Shown here: piece after piece, positions 8,581-18,122 of the stretch | How positions within the stretch are numbered: the first letter of the stretch is position 1 | Layout: each line of letters opens with the position of its first letter | Assembly: GCA_039588295.1 (NCBI GenBank) | Contig: JBDHAB010000029.1 | Coordinates: 1-53,779, forward strand | Reading direction: 5' to 3' | Source: Gemmatimonadota bacterium | GTDB taxonomy: Bacteria > Gemmatimonadota > Gemmatimonadetes > Gemmatimonadales > GWC2-71-9 | DNA: 53,779 bases | The notes under the pieces: model-generated | Seen by the model: only the letters and a program-made list of their open reading frames with translations | Told to the model about the DNA's origin: nothing | Databases searched by the model: none | Made by a program: the position numbers and the translations under genes

Positions 8581-10179
8581 TTACGCCACCGGTCCGGCCG
8601 CACGCACCTCGTCTGCCACCGCGCTCGAGTAGCGTGCAAAGTTCTCTCTGAACATCGCTGCCAGCTTTGCGGCTTGAGTGTCGTAGTGAGCTTGATCCGC
8701 CCAGGTCCCTCGCGGGTCGAGCAGCTTCGCCGGTACCCCGGGGACCTCGCGTGGCACCTCCACTCCGAACACCGGGTCGCGACGAGTCGGCGTGTCGCGC
8801 AGGGTCCCGTCGAGGGCAGCACGGACCATCGCGCGAGTGAACGGCAGGTTCATTCGATGGCCCTCACCGTACGGGCCGCCAGTCCAGCCGGTGTTGAGCA
8901 ACCAGCACCGCACGTCGTGACGGTCGATCCGCTCTCCCAGCATCGTGGCATAGACATTCGGATGCCGTGGCAGGAACGGTGCTCCGAAACACGCGCTGAA
9001 CGTGGCCTGGGGCTCCGTGACGCCGCGTTCGGTACCGGCAACTTTGGCCGTATACCCGGAGAGGAAGTGATACATGGCCTGTTCGGGTGTGAGCCGTGCG
9101 AGCGGAGGTAGGACGCCGAACGCATCGGCCGTGAGGAACACGATGGATTCGGGATGGCCGGCCTGTCCTTCGGGAAGATGGTTGGGAATAAAATGGATGG
9201 GATACGACGCCCGCGTGTTCTCGGTGATGGAGTCGTCGTTCAGATCGACCTGCCGTGTCGCGGGATCGATCACAACGTTCTCCAGAATGGTCCCGAACAT
9301 CTGCGTCGTGGCATGGATCTCTGGTTCACCCTCGGCGGACAGCCGAATGATCTTCGCGTAGCAGCCACCCTCGAAATTGAACACACCGCGATCACTCCAC
9401 CCGTGCTCGTCGTCGCCGATCAGCGATCGAGTTGGATCGGCAGACAACGTGGTCTTTCCAGTGCCGGAGAGACCGAAGAACAACGCGACATTCCCGTCGG
9501 AGCCGACGTTGGCGGAGCAGTGCATCGGCAGGATGCCGCGCGCGGGATACAGATGGTTCAAGATCGTGAACATCGACTTCTTCATCTCGCCGGCGTAGCG
9601 CGTGCCGCCAATGAGCACGGTGCGTTCAGCGAAATTGACGACGATGAACGTACCCCCGCGTGTGGCGTGGCGAGCGGGATCCGCTTTCAAGTCAGGTGCG
9701 TGAAGCACCGTGAAGTCAGGCGTGAACCCCTCGAGTTCTTGGAGCCCCGGTCGGAGGAACATGTTGTGCACGAACAGCGTGTGCCACGCGTTGGGTGTGA
9801 TGAACCGGACCGCTGTCCGGTAGACTGGATCCGCCCCGGCGTACACGTCCCGCACGAACAGTTCTTGTTGACCGGCGAGATAGGACAGGACGTCGCGTTT
9901 GAGGAGTGCGTAGTGCTCCAGGTTCATCGGTTGGTTCACGTCGCCCCACCAAATCTCGTGTTCCGATTCGGGTTCTCGGACGATGAACTTGTCGTTCGGC
10001 GACCGCCCGGTATGCGGAGTCGTGATGGAGATGAACGGGCCCCGCGCGACGATCTGACCTTCCTGCCGTTTGACGGCGGACTCGTAAAGCGCTGCGGGGG
10101 CGAGATTCCACCACACCTGACCGCGGGGATCGAGGCCCGGTGCGATGAAAGCGCCGGAGCGTGGGACGGATGTGCTCAT
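8581..10179 (-). CDS. pckA: Phosphoenolpyruvate carboxykinase (ATP)
   Basis: [48 protein letters not shown] and ENTRASYP motifs. Start placed at MSTSVPRS. Confidence 0.96.
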
Positions 10180-10332
10180 GATACCACGGCCGTTTCTCCT
10201 GCCTCGCCGAGGCGACGTGTCCGTGAGGGGCTGAGACCGACGTGACATGCCTCAGTCACGAAGTCCCACGAGTAGGGCGATAAAGGTAACACGTGACGAG
10301 CGCCGTGGAATCTCCGGGGCGCTCGGCTCTGG

Positions 10333-10995
10333 TTACGGAGGGGTACTGCTCCAAGGAAGGATATCTGAGGGAACATGGTACAGGGTCTGCACCGTCGCAC
10401 GGTCGCGGAGTGATGGAGTCGATACCTGGGGCTGCCCAAACATGAGATCCACAGGGTCGGCACTGTGTGCAAAGATGCCCAGCGAATGGCCGATTTCGTG
10501 CGTAGTGACACGTGCCAAACAGTTGACGATGTCACTCGGCTCGGGCCCGGAAAACCACCGCAACTCGATTTGCAGCCGCGATTCAAACTGTGGCTTGGCC
10601 AGACCCGCGTCGACTCTCGGGGGCACCAACGTGACCCCTTCGCAGACGATGCGAGGCGGGTCGTTCGTGAGCGGTGCGTCGGGCGGGGGAGAGCCGATCA
10701 ACTGGATCACCACGTCGGCAAGTGCCGAATCGAGCACTCGTTCACCGCGAAACTCGCCGTACAGGAACTGCTGCTGCCACGTGACGATGCCGCTCGCCAC
10801 GTATTCCGGAAGCTGTCCGACGGGCTCGACATAGTAGCGAACGGGGAGCGACGACGGTGGCCAGTGAAACACGGAGTCGGTCCCGGCCAGCCGAAATTCG
10901 TAGGGAGCCAGGCGCAGCGGCGTACCCGGTGTATCACAGGCTGTGAGCTGGACGGCAGCAGTCACGATCAGGAGCGCCGCACTAGGGCCGCGCAT
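10333..10995 (-). CDS. Matrixin-like (metzincin) zinc metalloprotease, lipoprotein
   Basis: Lipobox LTAC, HEIGHSLGIFAH zinc-binding motif, Met-turn DLM and D-x-x-T-x-x-x-LY tail. Confidence 0.85.
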   Translation of the reverse strand: MRGPSAALLIVTAAVQLTACDTPGTPLRLAPYEFRLAGTDSVFHWPPSSLPVRYYVEPVGQLPEYVASGIVTWQQQFLYGEFRGERVLDSALADVVIQLIGSPPPDAPLTNDPPRIVCEGVTLVPPRVDAGLAKPQFESRLQIELRWFSGPEPSDIVNCLARVTTHEIGHSLGIFAHSADPVDLMFGQPQVSTPSLRDRATVQTLYHVPSDILPWSSTPP

Positions 10996-11602
10996 CGGAC
11001 AGGCTCCTTCGGAAGGTCATCTCGATGCTGATCCGGTGGACGATGCGTTGACCAGTGACCCCGCTGGAGCGAAGCGCCTGCGTCCCGAATCGATGTGCAT
11101 CGTAGGCAATCTGCAACCCGATCGCCGTGCGGGCGCCGAACCGCCGCTCGGCGCGCACGGCGAGAGCGGCGGCGGCGAAGAGGGGAGCACCTTCCTGAAA
11201 CAGGGTTCCCACCTTGGCCTCGTCGCTCGGTGCGTACTTGATGGCGCCGATCGAGCCCTGCACCGACGCCCAGTCGTTGAGTTGGCGCCGCAGTCCCAAC
11301 GACCCACTCCACACCGTCATGGTCATGATACTGGTCTTCTCGTCTCCTTCACGGCGGGCGAGGTCGCCTCGCGTCCAGCGTACCCCAGCCAGCAGCTGCC
11401 ATGATGGGTCGAGCAGCGCTCCGATCGCGACGGTCGCGCTCGGCGCGATATCCGGTCTGACCGTGAGCTCCTGAACGATCGAGTCGCGAACGAGAATCGA
11501 GCTTCCGAGCGCCCCGAGGCCCACCTCGACGGCCACCTGCGCTACGGCTGCAGCTGGCATCGCGCCGACGAGGACCCCCACCAGGGCCGCCGTCGGTCTC
11601 AT
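10982..11602 (-). CDS. Secreted protein, probable small outer-membrane beta-barrel
   Basis: Signal peptide (AVA-Q) and alternating hydrophobic strands. The start overlaps the permease stop (ATGA). Confidence 0.65.
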   Translation of the reverse strand: MRPTAALVGVLVGAMPAAAVAQVAVEVGLGALGSSILVRDSIVQELTVRPDIAPSATVAIGALLDPSWQLLAGVRWTRGDLARREGDEKTSIMTMTVWSGSLGLRRQLNDWASVQGSIGAIKYAPSDEAKVGTLFQEGAPLFAAAALAVRAERRFGARTAIGLQIAYDAHRFGTQALRSSGVTGQRIVHRISIEMTFRRSLSDARP

Positions 11603-12441
11603 GCCACGCGCACCCGTATGACTCGCCGCAGTGCAAACGCCACGATGAGTGCGACGGCGAAGGCACAGACGACCACCGGTCCGGTGGGGAGGTCAACCTG
11701 GTACGACACGAAGAGTCCGAGGATCGTCGCCAACGTTCCCGTGCTCCAAGCGATCACGAGCATGCGACCCGGTGTGGAGGCGAAGAGGAACGCGATCACC
11801 GCGGGGATCACCAGAAAGCTGAATACCACGAGGACTCCGGCGATCGCTACCGAGGACGTTACGACCACACCAAACAGCGCGTAGAACAGGAAGTCCCACC
11901 ACGCGATCTTCCATTTCTCCTCACGCGCCCTGCGGGGCTCCAACGAGATCGTGAGAAACCGCTTGCGCAACAGCCAATGCACCCCGCCGATTGCGCCGTA
12001 CACGAGCGCGGTCTTGGCAATTGAGGGCCACGTGACCCACAGGAGACTGCCGGTCAACAATTGCTCGACGTGCTCCGAGCCGCGTGGTGCTTGTGCGGCC
12101 AGCAGTATGGTGCCGGCGGACGCCACGACGTACACGATCCCGATGATCGCCTCCTGGGGTATCCGGTCTTGCTCCATCCGCGTGATGCTGAATACTGCGG
12201 CAGCCACCAGGGTGGTACCCAATCCAATGAGATAGCCGGCCTCGGAGGATTGCAGGCCGAGCAGCGACCCGAGCGCATCTGCCAGTCCGAGCCCCGCAGC
12301 GGCCCATCCCAACGCGGCGACCTGAGCCAGCGCGAGATCGACGAAGATGACTCCTCGTGCGATGATGTGGATTCCCAGATAGCCATGGATGCCAACCAGG
12401 ATCAGCGAGGCCACGAGGGCCGGTAGCATCAATTCGAGCAT
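11599..12441 (-). CDS. Metal (Zn/Mn) ABC transporter permease, ABC-3 family
   Basis: GIHIIARGVIFVDLALAQVAALG, PQEAIIG, GVLVVFSFLVIPA and DLPTGP motifs; multiple TMs. Confidence 0.9.
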   Translation of the reverse strand: MLELMLPALVASLILVGIHGYLGIHIIARGVIFVDLALAQVAALGWAAAGLGLADALGSLLGLQSSEAGYLIGLGTTLVAAAVFSITRMEQDRIPQEAIIGIVYVVASAGTILLAAQAPRGSEHVEQLLTGSLLWVTWPSIAKTALVYGAIGGVHWLLRKRFLTISLEPRRAREEKWKIAWWDFLFYALFGVVVTSSVAIAGVLVVFSFLVIPAVIAFLFASTPGRMLVIAWSTGTLATILGLFVSYQVDLPTGPVVVCAFAVALIVAFALRRVIRVRVA

Positions 12442-12538
12442 ACGATATCCGTTGTGCTAAGACCCTCGAGGTCTCCCCGCCACCCCCGTGCGCTCGAGCA
12501 CCATGTGCATCACTCGATCGCCCGTCCGTACCGCGACG

Positions 12539-13636
12539 CTATTCGTTCGACGCCGGCTGACGGTATGCCTCCGCCAGCGCCGAGACCCACCGGTCCACCA
12601 GCGCAAAGTAATCGGTGACGGTATCCTCACCGTCGACGTGCTCGGGAACGATGACCGCCCTCGCCCCCGTACGGGAGGCCACACGCTCCACCTGCGATGC
12701 GTTGAAGTAGTTCGCCGCGAACACGACGGGGATGTCGGCCTCTCGGATGAAATCGATGACACGCCGCACGTGTCCCGGTGACGGTGGAATGCCGGGCTTG
12801 GGCTCGACGTACATCGCGCACTCCACTTGGAAGCGCGCGTTGAAGTAGGCCCAGTTCTTGTGGTAGCACACCATGCGCCGGCCGCGGAACGGCTCGGCCT
12901 GCGCGAGCCATCCGCCGAGATAGTCGGTGAGTGGCCGCTCTTCAAAGGTCTCGCTGCGCGCGAAATTCCAAAACCGGTGTGTACGCGCGAGGTCGAAGAG
13001 CGTTTCCTTGCCGAGCATCTCGACGATCCGATCGCCGAACAACCGTCGCATGACTTGATTCTCAAACTCCGTGAGATTGGCCCGATAGACCGCCGCGTTG
13101 CGGCTGTCCACCTGTTCGAGGCCCCCGACGATATTGCGGGCGATGATGATCGCGTTGATCGGGTCGGTATGGATGTGCGGATTGCCGAACACATGAATGT
13201 CCCCGCCAGACCGAGACACGTTCTGCGGGACATCGAGTAACGTGACACCGGCGTACGCGGCGACATGTCCCGATGCCCCCTCGAGCACCTGGGCATTGTT
13301 TGCTCGGTCGAGCAACACTGGCACCCAGAGTTCGAGATCCAGGCCTGTTGCCACGAACAGGTCTGCGCGCTGGAGCAGCGCGGCGAAGCTCGGTCGCGGG
13401 GTGACGAAGTGCGCATCCTCATCACCGCGTGCGATCGCGCGAATGTTCACCAACGGGCCAGCGACGTGCCGCGCGATGGCGGCATACGTGGGCAGCGTGG
13501 TGACCACGTTGATCTTGTCCTGCGCCGAGATTGGCGGTGCGAGGGCGGACCACAGTGCCGCTGCACCCCAAAGGGTCAGCCACGGGGAGGGCCCGCGTCG
13601 GCCATCCGTTCGCACACACGTGTTGCGGTGCATCAT
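12539..13636 (-). CDS. Metal (Zn/Mn) ABC transporter substrate-binding protein, ZnuA/TroA family
   Basis: Signal peptide; VVTT, DAHFV, GLDLELW, GDIHVFGNPHIHTDP, YHKNWAY and EPKPGIPPS motifs. GAGGA RBS before ATG at 13636. Confidence 0.92.
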   Translation of the reverse strand: MMHRNTCVRTDGRRGPSPWLTLWGAAALWSALAPPISAQDKINVVTTLPTYAAIARHVAGPLVNIRAIARGDEDAHFVTPRPSFAALLQRADLFVATGLDLELWVPVLLDRANNAQVLEGASGHVAAYAGVTLLDVPQNVSRSGGDIHVFGNPHIHTDPINAIIIARNIVGGLEQVDSRNAAVYRANLTEFENQVMRRLFGDRIVEMLGKETLFDLARTHRFWNFARSETFEERPLTDYLGGWLAQAEPFRGRRMVCYHKNWAYFNARFQVECAMYVEPKPGIPPSPGHVRRVIDFIREADIPVVFAANYFNASQVERVASRTGARAVIVPEHVDGEDTVTDYFALVDRWVSALAEAYRQPASNE

Positions 13637-13647
13637 AGTCGTCCTCT

Positions 13648-14958
13648 TCAATACGTCTCGTGCTTATGCGGCCCGATCGCCCACACGGCCTGCAGAAGCA
13701 GCGTGTGGTTGCTCTCGCCACCTTCCGGCCGCACGAAGTTGTACTGCAACCGCAACCGCACCCACTCGCTCTGCCACCAGCTGAGGCTTGGTGCCAGCTG
13801 CAGGATTCCGGTGTCGGTGCCGTAGCCTTCCACGTAATCGGCACGCACCCCGGCGATCCACCGGCGATTGAGCCGGAAACTGGCTTGCGCATACCCACCG
13901 TGACCGGACTCAGTGACGCCGTTCACTTCCTGTTCCGCGAAGTACCACTCGGACTTGAGCAGGAGTTCGCGGTACAACGCGCGGCCCGCCGGCGTCCAGC
14001 GGAAGGCGACGTCGATGCCGAGCAAACGCGAGTCCAGGAGCGCGTCGTCGTTCTCCCCGACGACGCCGGTTGCTCCGAATTGGACGAAGCTGTTGCCTCC
14101 ACCAACCTCCCAGAAGCTCTGGATCCGGCCGAGGTAACTCAGCTCGTTCCCGTCGGCGAAGAGGGCCTCGTTGTCACCGCGGGCGAGTTCGAAGGTTGCC
14201 GTCTGGGTCGATGGGCCGAGGCGCAGCGACGGAAACGTCACCGAGGCGCCCGCCTGAATGAGCCCGTCTTCGCCCAGGAACGTGACGGCTGCGAGCGGTC
14301 GGTCGACCTCCATCAGGGCATGGGTGTGCCACCGGTTGTAAAGACCGATTTCTTGGCGGAACTTGCCGACCTTGACGCCGAGCCTGCCGGGCAGACCCAC
14401 CCAATAGAGGTAGCCCTCCTCGATCGCGAACCCGCCGTGGGCCTCGCCTTCCGGGTCGTCCTCCGCGAAGCCGGCGATTGCAACATCCTCCTCGCGGGTC
14501 ACGAAGATCTTGGTCCGCGTGTACGGATCCAAGGCAGATTGAAACGAGAACTCGAACTCTCTCGGTACGGCAGTCACGTTGCTGGACTCACCTGCCGGCG
14601 CCACGAAGTTGCCCACGAAATCGCCGGTGACGCTGATCTCAGGGTTCAGAATACTGAGGTTCCGCGTGCGACTGTCCTGTCCTCCGACCGAGTCCGAAGC
14701 CGGAGGCCGCTCAGCCGCTGCCCGCCGGGCGGCGGCGCGAAGTGCTGCAAGCTCATCTCGTGCGGCCGCTGTGTCCTGACCTTCACGCGCGAGCCGTTGG
14801 ATGATCCGCTCGAGGGAGTCGACTCGCGCCTTGAGCCGCCGAAGTTCTCGCAGCACGGAGTCGGCAGGCTCCGCACGCTGCTGGGCTTCCAGCGGATGCA
14901 CCTCTGCACCGGCGACGATAATCCCACATGCGATGAGCGGCCCAAGTCGGGCAATCAT
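13648..14958 (-). CDS. Outer-membrane porin-type beta-barrel with N-terminal coiled coil and His-containing C-terminus (metal-uptake associated)
   Basis: Signal peptide, coiled coil, NPEISVTGD, DPY, EEGY, GKFR..G.YN.WH.H and C-terminal IGPHKHETY. GGGAG RBS before ATG at 14958. Confidence 0.8.
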   Translation of the reverse strand: MIARLGPLIACGIIVAGAEVHPLEAQQRAEPADSVLRELRRLKARVDSLERIIQRLAREGQDTAAARDELAALRAAARRAAAERPPASDSVGGQDSRTRNLSILNPEISVTGDFVGNFVAPAGESSNVTAVPREFEFSFQSALDPYTRTKIFVTREEDVAIAGFAEDDPEGEAHGGFAIEEGYLYWVGLPGRLGVKVGKFRQEIGLYNRWHTHALMEVDRPLAAVTFLGEDGLIQAGASVTFPSLRLGPSTQTATFELARGDNEALFADGNELSYLGRIQSFWEVGGGNSFVQFGATGVVGENDDALLDSRLLGIDVAFRWTPAGRALYRELLLKSEWYFAEQEVNGVTESGHGGYAQASFRLNRRWIAGVRADYVEGYGTDTGILQLAPSLSWWQSEWVRLRLQYNFVRPEGGESNHTLLLQAVWAIGPHKHETY

Positions 14959-15035
14959 GTCCGTGCTCCCAAAGTTCTCGTGACTGGTTACGGCTGGCTG
15001 TCCCCAATGATCGAACGGGGACCGTGCAATCGTGG

Positions 15036-15371
15036 CTAGCGCCAGGGCGGTGCTCGAACCGTGTTGGCGAGAACGCGGGGGATGCGCCGGAGCAAGGTCT
15101 GATCGGTGAGCGGTGCCTCCGATGAGACCGCGACCGACCAGGGGCGGGCGACGCGCTGGGACACGTCGGCGAGATGAACCGCCCCTGCCAGGGTGCACGC
15201 GGGTCCGGCATGGACCGTCGGGCAGTCCTTGGAGTGCTCCGATTCCAGGGCCGCAGTCGAGTCCAGTGTCTCGGTCTCGGCGTGCAGGATCCCAGTACCG
15301 GCGACGACGCCGGCGTAGGCGAGCATGGAGAGGATCCCGGTGATCCGCCGGAGGAACGGTGCATGCGGCAT
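15036..15371 (-). CDS. Leader peptide with N-terminal TM/signal segment, His/Cys cluster and C-terminal RAPP motif (DUF2946/CruR-like arrest peptide)
   Basis: 111 aa: MPHAPFLRR-ITGILSMLAYAGVVAGTGIL-HAE...EHSKDCPTVHAGPACTLA...LANTVRAPPWR*. RAPP codons at 15045-15056. Alternative ATG at 15389. Confidence 0.8.
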   Translation of the reverse strand: MPHAPFLRRITGILSMLAYAGVVAGTGILHAETETLDSTAALESEHSKDCPTVHAGPACTLAGAVHLADVSQRVARPWSVAVSSEAPLTDQTLLRRIPRVLANTVRAPPWR

Positions 15372-15411
15372 AGAGGTGGTGGATACCATCCGAGGGGCCT
15401 GAGGTTCCGTC

Positions 15412-16506
15412 CTACTGACGTACCATCTCGAGCAGCCTCTGGCCGACACGCTCGTTCGATAGCAATCCGCCAAACTGCTCGTTTCCGGGTCCGACAGCGA
15501 AGATCGGCACCAACGCCGCGGTGTGGCCACCCGTGGTATAGCGAAGCGTGGGAGCTCCGGTGCTATCGGTGTGCACCGCGAGCCCTCCGGTCTCGTGATC
15601 GCCGAGCACGACGATGAGCGTTTCCGGATGTCGGCGGCGATACGCTACGGCGACTTCAATCGCCTCATCGAAGGCTCGCATCTCGGCTGCGATGATGTCG
15701 AACGGTTCGTTATGGTGCGCCTGGGTATCGGTCTCCTCGTTCTCCACCATGAGGAAGAAGCCGTCAGGATCACGGTCCAGGATCTCCAACGCCGTTTGGG
15801 TCATTCCTGCGAGCGTGGGGGCGCGGGCGCCGGCGAGCGGCATATCGCGCTCGGAGAAGAGTCCGAGCAGCGTACTGACGGTGTCGAGGCTCAGCGAAGT
15901 GAGTTCTGCGGCCGACTCGACATAGGTGTAGCGTGCTCTGAGCTGCGCAAGCACGCTTTCCGTGGTGTCGGTGCTTGCCAGCCGGAAGAAGCTGCGCCCA
16001 CCGCCCATGAGCACGGTGATGTCGTGCCGCGCCATTTGCCGGGCGACCTCGAGGTGGTCGCGAGCGGGATAGTGCGTGCAGAAAGCAGCCGGTGTAGCAT
16101 CCGTCAGTGCGGTCGTCGTAATGAGTCCCGAGGCCATGCCCCGTTCCATCCCTACCTCGAGCACGGTCGGACGTGGCTGCGAATCCGGACCCAGGCCCAA
16201 CGCTCGCATGACTGTTCGCGTTCCAGTAGCATAGGCAGTCGCAGCTGGCGCGCTACCCGTCACGAGATGGTTCGAGCCCCTGGTATCGACGAGACCGAAC
16301 GCCTCGAAATCGTCGACCGCGAGTCGTCCGATGGCGACTCGCGCAACGGTCCAGTGCCCCAACCCGGCGCCGTCGGCGACGAACAGAATGATGCGCGGAG
16401 GGGTATCGGAGTTCGGGGCTGATACCGGGGTTCCCGACGAGGACGTGCAACTTGCGATCAGGCAGGCCAGGACGGTTGCGCCCGGCAGCACGGAGCGTTT
16501 CTTCAT
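15412..16506 (-). CDS. Alkaline phosphatase (PhoA family), lipoprotein
   Basis: Lipobox IASC. ADG, GSAPAATA (catalytic Ser), DATPA, VE...D..AH, GDHETGG and GHT metal ligands are retained. Confidence 0.9.
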   Translation of the reverse strand: MKKRSVLPGATVLACLIASCTSSSGTPVSAPNSDTPPRIILFVADGAGLGHWTVARVAIGRLAVDDFEAFGLVDTRGSNHLVTGSAPAATAYATGTRTVMRALGLGPDSQPRPTVLEVGMERGMASGLITTTALTDATPAAFCTHYPARDHLEVARQMARHDITVLMGGGRSFFRLASTDTTESVLAQLRARYTYVESAAELTSLSLDTVSTLLGLFSERDMPLAGARAPTLAGMTQTALEILDRDPDGFFLMVENEETDTQAHHNEPFDIIAAEMRAFDEAIEVAVAYRRRHPETLIVVLGDHETGGLAVHTDSTGAPTLRYTTGGHTAALVPIFAVGPGNEQFGGLLSNERVGQRLLEMVRQ

Positions 16507-16600
16507 GTCAGTGCCCTGGATGTTTGAGGTAGATCACCTTACTGTCCAGCCCTCGATCGGTGGAGTCTGGTGCTCCGCCCGCCACCCAGCGGAGGTAGGA

Positions 16601-17443
16601 ATGGTTCGTCGTTGCTTGCTGGTCCTCGTTACCGCACTGCTTGTTATACCAGGGTCGGCTGCGCTGGCGCAAGATTCGACCGCCGCGCCACGGCTCAGGA
16701 TCCTCGTCGCGAATGACGACGGATTCCAAGCGCCCGGTCTGGTCGCGCTGGTCGATTCGCTGGTCACCATCGCCGATGTCGTGGTGGCTGCCCCGCTCAG
16801 CCAGCAGAGTGGCACGGGTCACGGCATCACCTTTCGCGAGCCGATCAAGGTGACCGACTTCGGCAATCGGTATGCCATCCCGTGGTACGCCATTGATGCC
16901 CGTCCGGCAACCTGTGTGCGCCTCGCGCTGACGACGTTGCTCGACTCGCTTCCCGACTTGGTGGTTTCGGGGATCAACACCGGTGACAACGTCGGGGTCT
17001 CCGCCTGGCTCTCGGGCACGGTGGCGGCAGCACGGGAAGCCGCCCTGCATGGCATTCCGGCGATCGCGGTCTCCGCCGGGTTGGGCCAATATCAGGACTA
17101 CCAGATCGCGGCTGGCTACATCCGCCAATTGGTCGAGCAGCTCCTCGCCGATGGGACGCTCAAGAAGCGGCCGTTGCTCAACGTGAACGTGCCGGCCGGA
17201 GGACCGAGGGGCGTCAAGGTATCGGGGATGAGCCTGATGCTGGGCACCGAAACGTATGACGACCGACTGTCACCCCGAGGCCAACGCTACTTCTGGGACA
17301 CCTGGTCGCCCCCGGAGGACGACACGCTGGAAGGCACCGACCTCTATTGGTACTCGCGCGGTTACATCACGGTGACCCCGCTCAAGATCGATCAGACGGA
17401 TACCGCCGTGATGAAGGCGCTCGGCATCCGGCTCGAGAAGTAG
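16601..17443 (+). CDS. surE: 5'/3'-nucleotidase SurE with Sec signal peptide
   Basis: ILVANDDG..APG, QSGTG, VVSGINTGDN, SGTVAAAREA and VTPL motifs. GGAGG RBS. N-terminal signal MVRRCLLVLVTALLVIPGSAALA. Confidence 0.9.
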   Translation: MVRRCLLVLVTALLVIPGSAALAQDSTAAPRLRILVANDDGFQAPGLVALVDSLVTIADVVVAAPLSQQSGTGHGITFREPIKVTDFGNRYAIPWYAIDARPATCVRLALTTLLDSLPDLVVSGINTGDNVGVSAWLSGTVAAAREAALHGIPAIAVSAGLGQYQDYQIAAGYIRQLVEQLLADGTLKKRPLLNVNVPAGGPRGVKVSGMSLMLGTETYDDRLSPRGQRYFWDTWSPPEDDTLEGTDLYWYSRGYITVTPLKIDQTDTAVMKALGIRLEK

Positions 17444-17462
17444 CGAGCCGCGTCGGCGGGCG

Positions 17463-18122
17463 TCAGACCCCCGGCCGAAACGCTTCGGCGGAGACGAGCG
17501 GGACGAAGCGGCAGGGGCCGGCGTACGTGGTCCGGTACCCTCCGTGCGTGCGCTCGATGATTGTCAGGTCCTGGAGCGCGCGATCTCCGATCGGAATCAC
17601 CAGTCGGCCGCCAACCGTCAGTTGGTCCAACAGCCGTGTTGGCGGCTTCGGCGACGCGGCCGCGACGATGATGGTGTCAAACGGCGCCGCCGACGGGTAG
17701 CCGAGCGCGCCGTCCCCGACGATGAGCGTCACGTTGTCGCAGCCGAGCAGCCGCAAGCGATGTCCTGCGTCGTCGGACAGCGACGCGATCCGTTCCACAC
17801 TCCATACGTGCTTGGCGAGCTTCGCCAGCACGGCAGTCTGATAGCCCGATCCCGTTCCGACATCCAGGACCTTGGAGCGCCGAGTCACCCGCGCGGCCTG
17901 GGTCATGAGCGCGACGATATATGGTTGTGAAATCGTCTGCTCGTGTCCGATGGGTAGCGGGCCGTCGTCATAGGCGTGGTCCCGCAGGTGGGGTGGGACG
18001 AAGACCTCGCGGGGAACCGATACCATGGCTGCCAGGACCCGGCGGTCGTGGATGTCCCGTGCGGCGAGATGCCGTCGCACCATGGTGCGCACGTCTGCTC
18101 GTTTGGAGTGGGCCACGGTCAT
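17463..18122 (-). CDS. pcm: Protein-L-isoaspartate O-methyltransferase
   Basis: VPREVFVP, AYDDGPLPIG..QTISQPYIVA, VLDVGTGSGYQTA and FVPLV motifs. AGGAG RBS before ATG at 18122. Confidence 0.93.
   Translation of the reverse strand: MTVAHSKRADVRTMVRRHLAARDIHDRRVLAAMVSVPREVFVPPHLRDHAYDDGPLPIGHEQTISQPYIVALMTQAARVTRRSKVLDVGTGSGYQTAVLAKLAKHVWSVERIASLSDDAGHRLRLLGCDNVTLIVGDGALGYPSAAPFDTIIVAAASPKPPTRLLDQLTVGGRLVIPIGDRALQDLTIIERTHGGYRTTYAGPCRFVPLVSAEAFRPGV

Follow-up and report, generated by a model that had tools for sequence, protein, structure and literature searches.

We report that a small open reading frame ahead of a porin-ZnuA-ZnuB operon in a Gemmatimonadota bacterium is a real, conserved gene, that it almost certainly encodes a ribosome arrest peptide and that this peptide probably responds to a metal; on balance, we favour the reading that it acts in cis, arresting translation according to the zinc supply and so controlling a zinc importer. 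The basis for this proposal in the data is the conservation of the leader, the spacing of its motifs, its gene context, a codon bias towards anti-Shine-Dalgarno (anti-SD) words and a pattern in which the operon has either the leader or Zur boxes. The window is the whole stretch of DNA that was analysed (53,779 nucleotides), and the features discussed below are collected in Table 1.

Table 1. Coordinates of the leader, its parts and the neighbouring genes in the window.
Feature	Position	Strand	Remarks
ABC-3 (ZnuB-type) permease, only one found in genome	11599..12441	minus	
ZnuA-family solute-binding protein (SBP), three His ligands	12539..13633	minus	PF01297, E 3.6e-44
Porin homologue, 436-aa outer-membrane protein	13648..14958	minus	faint porin O match, E 0.11
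Porin translation-initiation region	14959..14980	minus	SD GGAG at 14969-14966
Short intergenic hairpin	15000..15022	minus	no U-tract, not a terminator
Leader ORF, 111 aa, arrest peptide distantly akin to DUF2946 (CruR/CutF-like)	15371..15036	minus	
RAPP arrest motif R106-A107-P108-P109	15045..15056	minus	P-site at P108 by analogy with ApdA, ApdP and CruR
Linker, length fixed, sequence free	15057..15194	minus	Pro/Ala/Ser/Thr-rich, C-rich mRNA
Predicted arm, codons 97-101	15068..15080	minus	pairs with 14968-14980, masks 5' side of porin SD
Candidate metal site E43-x2-H46-x3-C50-x3-H54-x4-C59	15195..15245	minus	from alignment
Export signal/anchor, residues 1-31	15279..15371	minus	ends in conserved P-x-x-[HD]-A; predicted helix 4-42
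Promoter-like element GGAACC, 17 nt, TATCCA, then 8 nt to ATG	15380..15408	minus	poor -10 match
Alkaline phosphatase, PhoA family	15412..16506	minus	context, 40 nt upstream of leader

Architecture and conservation of the leader

The basic N-terminus, hydrophobic segment, HAE, His/Cys cluster and RAPP two residues before the stop that the original prediction described are all present in the 111-aa translation: R8 and R9 are followed by the hydrophobic stretch I10-L29 and by H30-A31-E32, and RAPP occupies residues 106-109 with two residues remaining. The long linker stood as well, although its length of 'about 40' had been counted from H66, which is poorly kept (14/66 leaders); 46 residues separate C59 and R106. 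At C59 the leader reads C-T-L-A, i.e. CxxC is absent. The gene lies 40 nt downstream of the alkaline phosphatase gene and 77 nt upstream of the porin gene, and the features of the RAPP arrest-peptide class are present, namely a small exported-type protein, R[AG]PP near the C-terminus and a co-oriented gene downstream. A GTG start that would give 164 aa overlaps the phosphatase gene and was dropped. The leader matched nothing in Pfam or NCBIfam, a Foldseek search with its AlphaFold model (pLDDT 69, pTM 0.35; helix 4-42, ligand loop, helix 57-74 and disordered linker) gave no match, Rfam found neither a riboswitch nor another family over 10000-17500, and no second leader copy was found in the source genome.

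Loci for comparison were picked by the porin and not by the leader; the porin search confirmed 145 relatives, and the best 80 of the 145 were used. The rule applied was strict (an ORF of at least 85 aa whose R[AG]PP lies no more than 8 residues from the stop, at most 1 kb upstream of the porin match): by it, a leader was present in 65 of the 78 Gemmatimonadota loci with enough upstream DNA, compared with 2/402 other same-strand 1-kb windows and 0/74 reverse strands, and an RSPP variant in three further loci brings the loci with a RAPP-type ORF ahead of the porin to 68/78. Roughly 10 of the 78 have no leader ahead of the porin, one of them being masked by N. Among 40 further porin loci, mostly from genomes missed by the leader profile, 29 leaders were found and two loci were truncated. 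The leader is missing ahead of the porin in several separate clades (L015, L023, L049, L051, L052, L054, L071 and L072); a promoter-like motif seemingly lies directly upstream of the porin in L015 and L023, and L042 as well as L054 carries two tandem copies of the operon, of which the second has a leader in L054.

Collecting uORFs upstream of porin homologues had been suggested as a check of RAPP and His/Cys conservation, and its outcome favours the original prediction: H54, C59, R106, P108 and P109 are invariant in an alignment of 66 leaders, which were selected on the RAPP motif itself, the enrichment of that motif being shown by the controls above. The metal-site residues are kept in 63 (E43), 60 (H46), 60 (C50), 66 (H54) and 66 (C59) of these leaders, the complete E-H-C-H-C motif is found in 58/66 leaders and 130/148 database relatives, and residue 30 is His in 37 leaders, Asp in 29 and nothing else; Met makes up 0.5% of the sensor region. 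The distance from C59 to R106 is 47 in the source leader and ranges from 43 to 48 (46-47 in 51/66), and the tail after RAPP has 2-4 residues in 65/66. Within the motif, each of the six Arg codons and each of the four Pro codons is used somewhere, and over the whole gene dN/dS is 0.37 (14 disjoint pairs), with lower values for the sensor region (0.21) and higher ones for the linker (0.49). The leader profile matches 179/301 genomes of the phylum (one of those counted, G155, is flagged as unpublished and is used for no other result) and, at 50% identity, 1,241 clusters; R[AGS]PP closes the sequence in 147 of the 149 best non-self clusters, although these were found with the same profile and are not independent.

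Relation to DUF2946, CruR, CutF and other arrest peptides

An HMM search against DUF2946, a further check that had been proposed, found no match for the source leader itself: PF11162 gave nothing at E<=5, and its gathering cut-off of 23.7 bits was not reached. The same profile matches 6/66 close relatives weakly (best E 0.012) and 17/66 more distant relatives at E<=0.05, of which L160 alone is over the cut-off (23.9 bits) and also matches the leader-family profile (E 7e-8); a neighbouring cluster in the ESM Atlas carries 11% DUF2946. CxxC starting at the C59 position is found in 8/66 close leaders and in 20/27 more distant leaders of the same operon, and both CxxC and leader loss are scattered over a FastTree porin tree (110 sequences, Vibrio root), which we regard as indicative only. 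With CxxC scattered in this way and the family shading into DUF2946, little about the metal can be read from the absence of the second Cys. Judged from these profiles, the leader family is a divergent branch of CruR/CutF-like leaders.

CruR (Bp2923) of Bordetella pertussis is likewise an exported uORF and the first gene of a metal-import operon, with a Cys site about 46-49 residues before a C-terminal RAPP (PMC9426467), and its stall is the ON state, as proposed here for the leader. The first Cys of CruR lies 49 residues from the Arg and its CxxC-RAPP gap is 45, so that the 47 residues from C59 to R106 agree with CruR in a spacing that is reported to be required for regulation (PMC9426467). 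CruR stalls in vitro (PMC12992588). It is reported to need no signal peptide, and cytoplasmic sensing has been proposed for it (PMC9426467). The leader is unlike CruR in having no PF11162 match and no CxxC, in the extra residues H/D30, E43, H46, C50 and H54, in its target (porin-ZnuA-ZnuB as opposed to a copper TonB receptor), in the spacer to the next gene (77 nt vs 162 nt), in the anti-SD signal of its family, where CruR has a demonstrated Rho switch, and in its host. CutF of Rhodobacter capsulatus resembles the leader in being a co-translationally exported sensor of periplasmic metal, whose stalled ribosome melts a stem that hides the SD of the next gene (PMC9973294; bioRxiv 2025.02.05.636593). 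However, CutF is described as stalling on PPP in an EF-P-dependent manner, copper turning it ON for detoxification, whereas the leader has RAPP and precedes an importer for which metal should be the OFF signal. Sites made of His/Cys or of His only have been described in CutF-like proteins, some of which are suggested to bind Ni or Co (PMC9973294).

The leader has its arrest core and the position of that core in common with SecM, ApdA, ApdP and the RAPP/RGPP uORFs reported by Fujiwara et al. (2025), but these either monitor export or are untested (PMC12992588). RAPP is reported to stall with its third residue in the P-site, to do so with many upstream sequences and to be strongly avoided in proteomes (PMC12992588). 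The words 'zinc', 'ZnuA' and 'Gemmatimon' are absent from the main text of that paper, and at least 10 rows of its source table hold, uncommented, RAPP uORFs ahead of the same porin annotation; these leaders were not found in the text supplements of PMC9973294, the full list of which may hold them.

The distance between the metal site and the stall bears on the compartment in which metal would be read. C59 is 49 residues from the P-site proline P108, and the path from the peptidyl-transferase centre (PTC) to the periplasmic exit of SecY is given as 160 angstroms, or about 50 extended residues (PMC7513700). This spacing fits a metal site held at the periplasmic mouth of SecY, in line with the earlier suggestion that the spacer is long enough to span the exit tunnel. 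Sensing could nonetheless be cytoplasmic, since a large periplasmic domain is reported to exert force only about 70 residues from the PTC (bioRxiv 2021.02.06.430026) and CruR needs no signal peptide. Zn2+-driven folding releases SecM in an engineered construct, the ADR1a zinc finger-SecM fusion, which is like the proposed leader in that a nascent His/Cys domain folds on Zn2+ and arrest is released, and unlike it in being artificial and in folding in the tunnel at 24-26 residues, compared with 49 in the leader (PMC4571824).

The target operon and other targets of the leader family

The claim that the leader lies upstream of a Zn/Mn-type ABC and porin operon was right as to the genes named and is to be amended as to the transporter: an ABC ATPase is found in the porin-SBP-permease operon in 0/80 loci and in neither the Vibrio nor the Sulfurovum loci (L191, L192), and no cognate ATPase for the ABC-3 permease was found in the source genome. 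The operon may borrow an ATPase or work without one. The comparisons support a CruR-like RAPP arrest leader that precedes a porin and a metal importer of the cluster A-I type. Two His motifs mark the porin family, an invariant H-x-H and, at the C-terminus, G-[PA]-H-x-H/x; apart from the faint porin O/P match, no structurally solved relative was found, the single-sequence model has a pLDDT of 37.5, and the annotation 'TonB-dependent receptor' looks wrong. A 516-aa frame for the porin was dropped, its length not being conserved.

His occupies all three main ligand positions of the binding protein in 70/75 homologues, a pattern as in Synechocystis ZnuA and unlike the ligand set that we assume for YfeA, although YfeA and MntC are among the top PDB matches. 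The protein also has invariant C256 and C272, extra invariant H147 and H155 and an insertion of about 40 aa that is absent in Vibrio. The alkaline phosphatase, as a PhoA-family member presumably a zinc enzyme, is adjacent upstream in 29/80 loci, and an OMP beta-barrel with an M10-like metalloprotease (10333-11602 in the window) lies downstream in 11/80; these neighbours are likely zinc clients or plain synteny.

Other target classes come from hand-picked matches (60 regions favouring multi-copy genomes and other families, together with the 29 top loci, of 213), in which the leader family also precedes 37 TonB receptors and five TolC/CzcB-type efflux operons (L132, L137, L149, L158 and L169). 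ZnuD is the top NCBIfam match in 22/37 of the receptors, always far below the cut-off, and the efflux operons need the opposite polarity. As the family heads efflux operons and TonB receptors too, one metal and one polarity cannot be assumed for it. In several loci (L128, L131, L142, L146, L152, L164-L168, L170, L172 and L173), the gene after the ZnuD-like TonB receptor encodes a lipoprotein of about 155 aa that has no annotation and no significant Pfam match; in most of them an acidic stretch containing His follows the lipobox. This lipoprotein is a candidate surface metal-binding partner of these receptors.

Zinc, Zur boxes and the Fur family

The zinc reading rests on the target operon and not on the leader motif. 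An operon of Vibrio campbellii is homologous to all three genes (E 7e-18, 4e-34 and 5e-25, the porin match being that at 7e-18), has two perfect Zur boxes and lacks the leader. The omr-znuAII-znuBII operon of V. parahaemolyticus, which we link by annotation and gene order, sequences having been compared with V. campbellii, belongs to the Zur regulon and is reported to rise 283- to 1033-fold in zinc limitation (PMC9817125). The Vibrio operon has the same three-gene order without an ATPase and is controlled by Zur boxes, a leader being absent. Among 48 loci of a metagenome scan, 18/18 Vibrio-like loci have a Zur box and no leader, and the other 30 have no Zur box, 20 of them carrying a signal-CxxC-xAPP leader, five being truncated and five having none found. 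Upstream of the leader, a Zur box at 3 mismatches occurs in 1/65 Gemmatimonadota loci, under a proteobacterial pattern (PMC4176598) that need not be the box used in this phylum. Boxes of other regulators were likewise scarce in the 65 upstream regions. Scanned with what we take to be the DtxR, Fur, MntR and actinobacterial Zur patterns, these regions gave 2, 0, 0 and 1 matches, respectively.

No Fur-family gene was found in the source genome (96% complete) or in 3/4 genus mates; the source genome has two DtxR/MntR-type regulator genes. Across the phylum, a Fur-family protein over the cut-off, counted for the Fur family as a whole and not typed as Zur, is present in 256/301 genomes. Lack of Fur does not hold up as a general correlate of the leader: leader matches are missing from several genomes without Fur, and a Fur-family gene is present in most genomes that have the leader. 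The metal of the importer is most likely other than copper, as the original prediction had proposed, but this follows from the target operon; its argument from the loss of CxxC falls, given CxxC in 20/27 distant leaders. That zinc is the main ligand, with the stall as the ON state, seems to us somewhat probable.

A different leader lies ahead of the same porin in Sulfurovum-type loci (L192:2713-3069; L217, L220, L223-L239 and L241). It combines a signal and CxxC, frequently with a pair of His, and closes with a conserved G-[FY]-x-x-[TH]APP-x-x-F that lacks Arg, the APP lying about 70 residues after the Cys and its codons often reading CCTCC. This end is a candidate for a new arrest-motif variant with periplasm-length spacing. 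The Sulfurovum leader did not align with the source leader family (probability 0.7%), and homology is for this reason not claimed.

Promoter-like element and predicted masking of the porin start

Between 14800 and 16700, the scan listed neither a sigma-70 consensus promoter nor an intrinsic terminator. A GGAAC-type -35 is found in 25/65 loci and a TTG-type in 19/65, and many leaders begin 5-9 nt after a -10-like hexamer, which implies an mRNA that would be near-leaderless and have no SD for the leader. The hybrid motif GGAAC-N16-19-TAnA lies ahead of the leader ATG in 25/65 loci; its strict form has only 6 occurrences genome-wide, and a dedicated sigma factor or regulator may recognise it.

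The codons at the stall are biased. CCT encodes the P-site Pro in 34/66 leaders, compared with 7% in the porin genes and 10-17% where Pro is the first of a Pro-Pro pair, and CCTCC falls within -9..+15 of the P-site in 36/65 loci, compared with 6.7 expected after synonymous recoding. The porin SD pairs mainly with the stall stretch in 23/65 loci vs 4-13 in six recoded controls, with starts picked by script, a few of them probably wrong, and L004 left out for its doubtful start. The footprint of the stalled ribosome alone frees the SD by more than 0.25 in 8/65 loci (3, 3 and 1 in controls), and in 24/65 if upstream ribosomes are included. Since the Pro-Pro codons so often spell an anti-SD word, stalling probably opens the porin start, although the case is weaker in the source locus, whose stall codons are CCG-CCC and which lacks CCTCC: there, pairing of the SD is 0.99 and is unchanged by blocking -15..+15, falling to 0.31-0.34 once the arm at 15068-15080 (27-39 nt upstream of the P-site codon) is covered. 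By a strict measure, stall region and SD covary weakly (cognate duplex -12.9 vs -11.9 kcal/mol; cognate best in 3/66), the related loci not being independent. The original prediction had overlooked this anti-SD role of the Pro codons, as well as the near-leaderless promoter and the conserved H/D30 and E43. C exceeds G in the last 120 nt of the leader in 65/66 loci and does so beyond synonymous expectation in 56/66 (0.128 vs 0.09), most of the skew following from amino-acid content; Rho is present in the source genome and a T5 run in 0/66 leader-porin spacers.

Proposed mechanism and rival explanations

We propose the following mechanism. The mRNA would begin at or near the leader ATG, the signal would engage SecY and, as RAPP biochemistry elsewhere suggests, the ribosome would stall with P108 in the P-site, while geometry suggests that a chain under tension would just bring the H/D30-E43-H46-C50-H54-C59 loop into the periplasm. 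Without metal the stall would persist, and the stalled and queued ribosomes would cover mRNA that otherwise pairs with the porin SD, so that the SD would be free and porin-ZnuA-ZnuB translated. Binding of Zn2+ would compact the loop, pull the chain and release the stall, upon which the masking helix would form, possibly with Rho termination, and uptake would be turned off. C50 and C59 may be ligands or may form a disulfide that staples a His/Glu site.

Several other explanations have to be weighed against this mechanism. The same arrest switch could have another divalent metal (Ni, Co, Mn or Fe) or several metals as its ligand, which we regard as rather improbable: cluster A-I binding proteins are promiscuous, with YfeA and MntC among the top PDB matches here, His-only CutF-like leaders are reported ahead of Ni/Co genes (PMC9973294) and the leader family is also found ahead of CzcCBA-like efflux, but the third SBP ligand is His as in ZnuA in 70/75 homologues, the homologous Vibrio operon is Zur-boxed and its namesake is zinc-induced. 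The chance that we are dealing with an ordinary copper-responsive CruR-type leader minus one cysteine appears small. Despite the continuity with DUF2946 (17/66 distant relatives at E<=0.05, one over the gathering score), the CxxC in 20/27 distant leaders of the same operon and a spacing equal to that of CruR, the targets are ZnuA/ZnuB-type and not the CruR partners OprC, PCuAC, SCO or YcnI (the copper-gene scan of the loci not being exhaustive), the site is almost Met-free, and the homologous Vibrio operon has Zur boxes. Slightly smaller still is the chance of a SecM-like monitor of export or disulfide formation, released by translocation force or by a DsbA-made C50-C59 bond and not by metal. 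Such a monitor leaves the invariant H54 and H/D30, together with E43 and H46, unexplained, and every identified target class is a metal-handling-type transporter, even though every target is exported, disulfide-stabilised periplasmic folding is reported to release SecM (PMC7513700), a disulfide model has been put forward for CutF and dsbA-like genes are also preceded by RAPP leaders.

Least probable, and to our minds very much so, is a small secreted metal-binding protein in which RAPP has no regulatory role; the signal peptide with its peptidase-like site and the His/Cys cluster would suit it, but RAPP, which is avoided in proteomes, is invariably placed 2-4 residues before the stop (65/66), the linker keeps its length while its sequence drifts, and the gene is always first and in cis. 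A different question is that of the output. If metal is sensed as proposed, Rho-dependent termination, as for CruR, could be the main output in place of masking of the ribosome-binding site, which we think unlikely but worth taking seriously: C exceeds G in 65/66 leader ends and does so above synonymous expectation in 56/66, Rho is present, neither an intrinsic terminator nor, in any of the 66 spacers, a T5 run was found, and the footprint alone leaves the SD of the source locus closed. Against this, the C skew comes mostly from amino-acid content and the CCT-CC bias at the stall would go unexplained, although both outputs are compatible.

Taken in full, the most far-reaching reading is of a natural arrest peptide that reads periplasmic Zn2+ across SecY and takes the place of Zur in the control of a zinc-import operon, in a lineage from which Fur-family regulators have been lost; this operon is Zur-boxed in Vibrio and has a non-Arg (T/H)APP leader in Sulfurovum-like bacteria, and the stall prolines often double as the anti-SD arm. 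In this complete form we advance it tentatively, as a little short of an even bet.

Implications

The general mechanism is already known, and the association of leader and porin is already in a published source table. In the literature that we found, most subscription papers lying outside its scope, sensing of metal by a stalled nascent peptide is tested only for copper (CruR and CutF), other metals being only suggested, and we found no tested zinc-sensing arrest peptide. The leader family is a concrete zinc candidate for which Vibrio, where Zur controls the same operon, provides a natural control. If the proposal is true, it would amount to a repressor-free route to zinc homeostasis, would help to decide whether such sensors read metal in the cytoplasm or in the periplasm, and would offer a genetically encoded reporter of periplasmic zinc.
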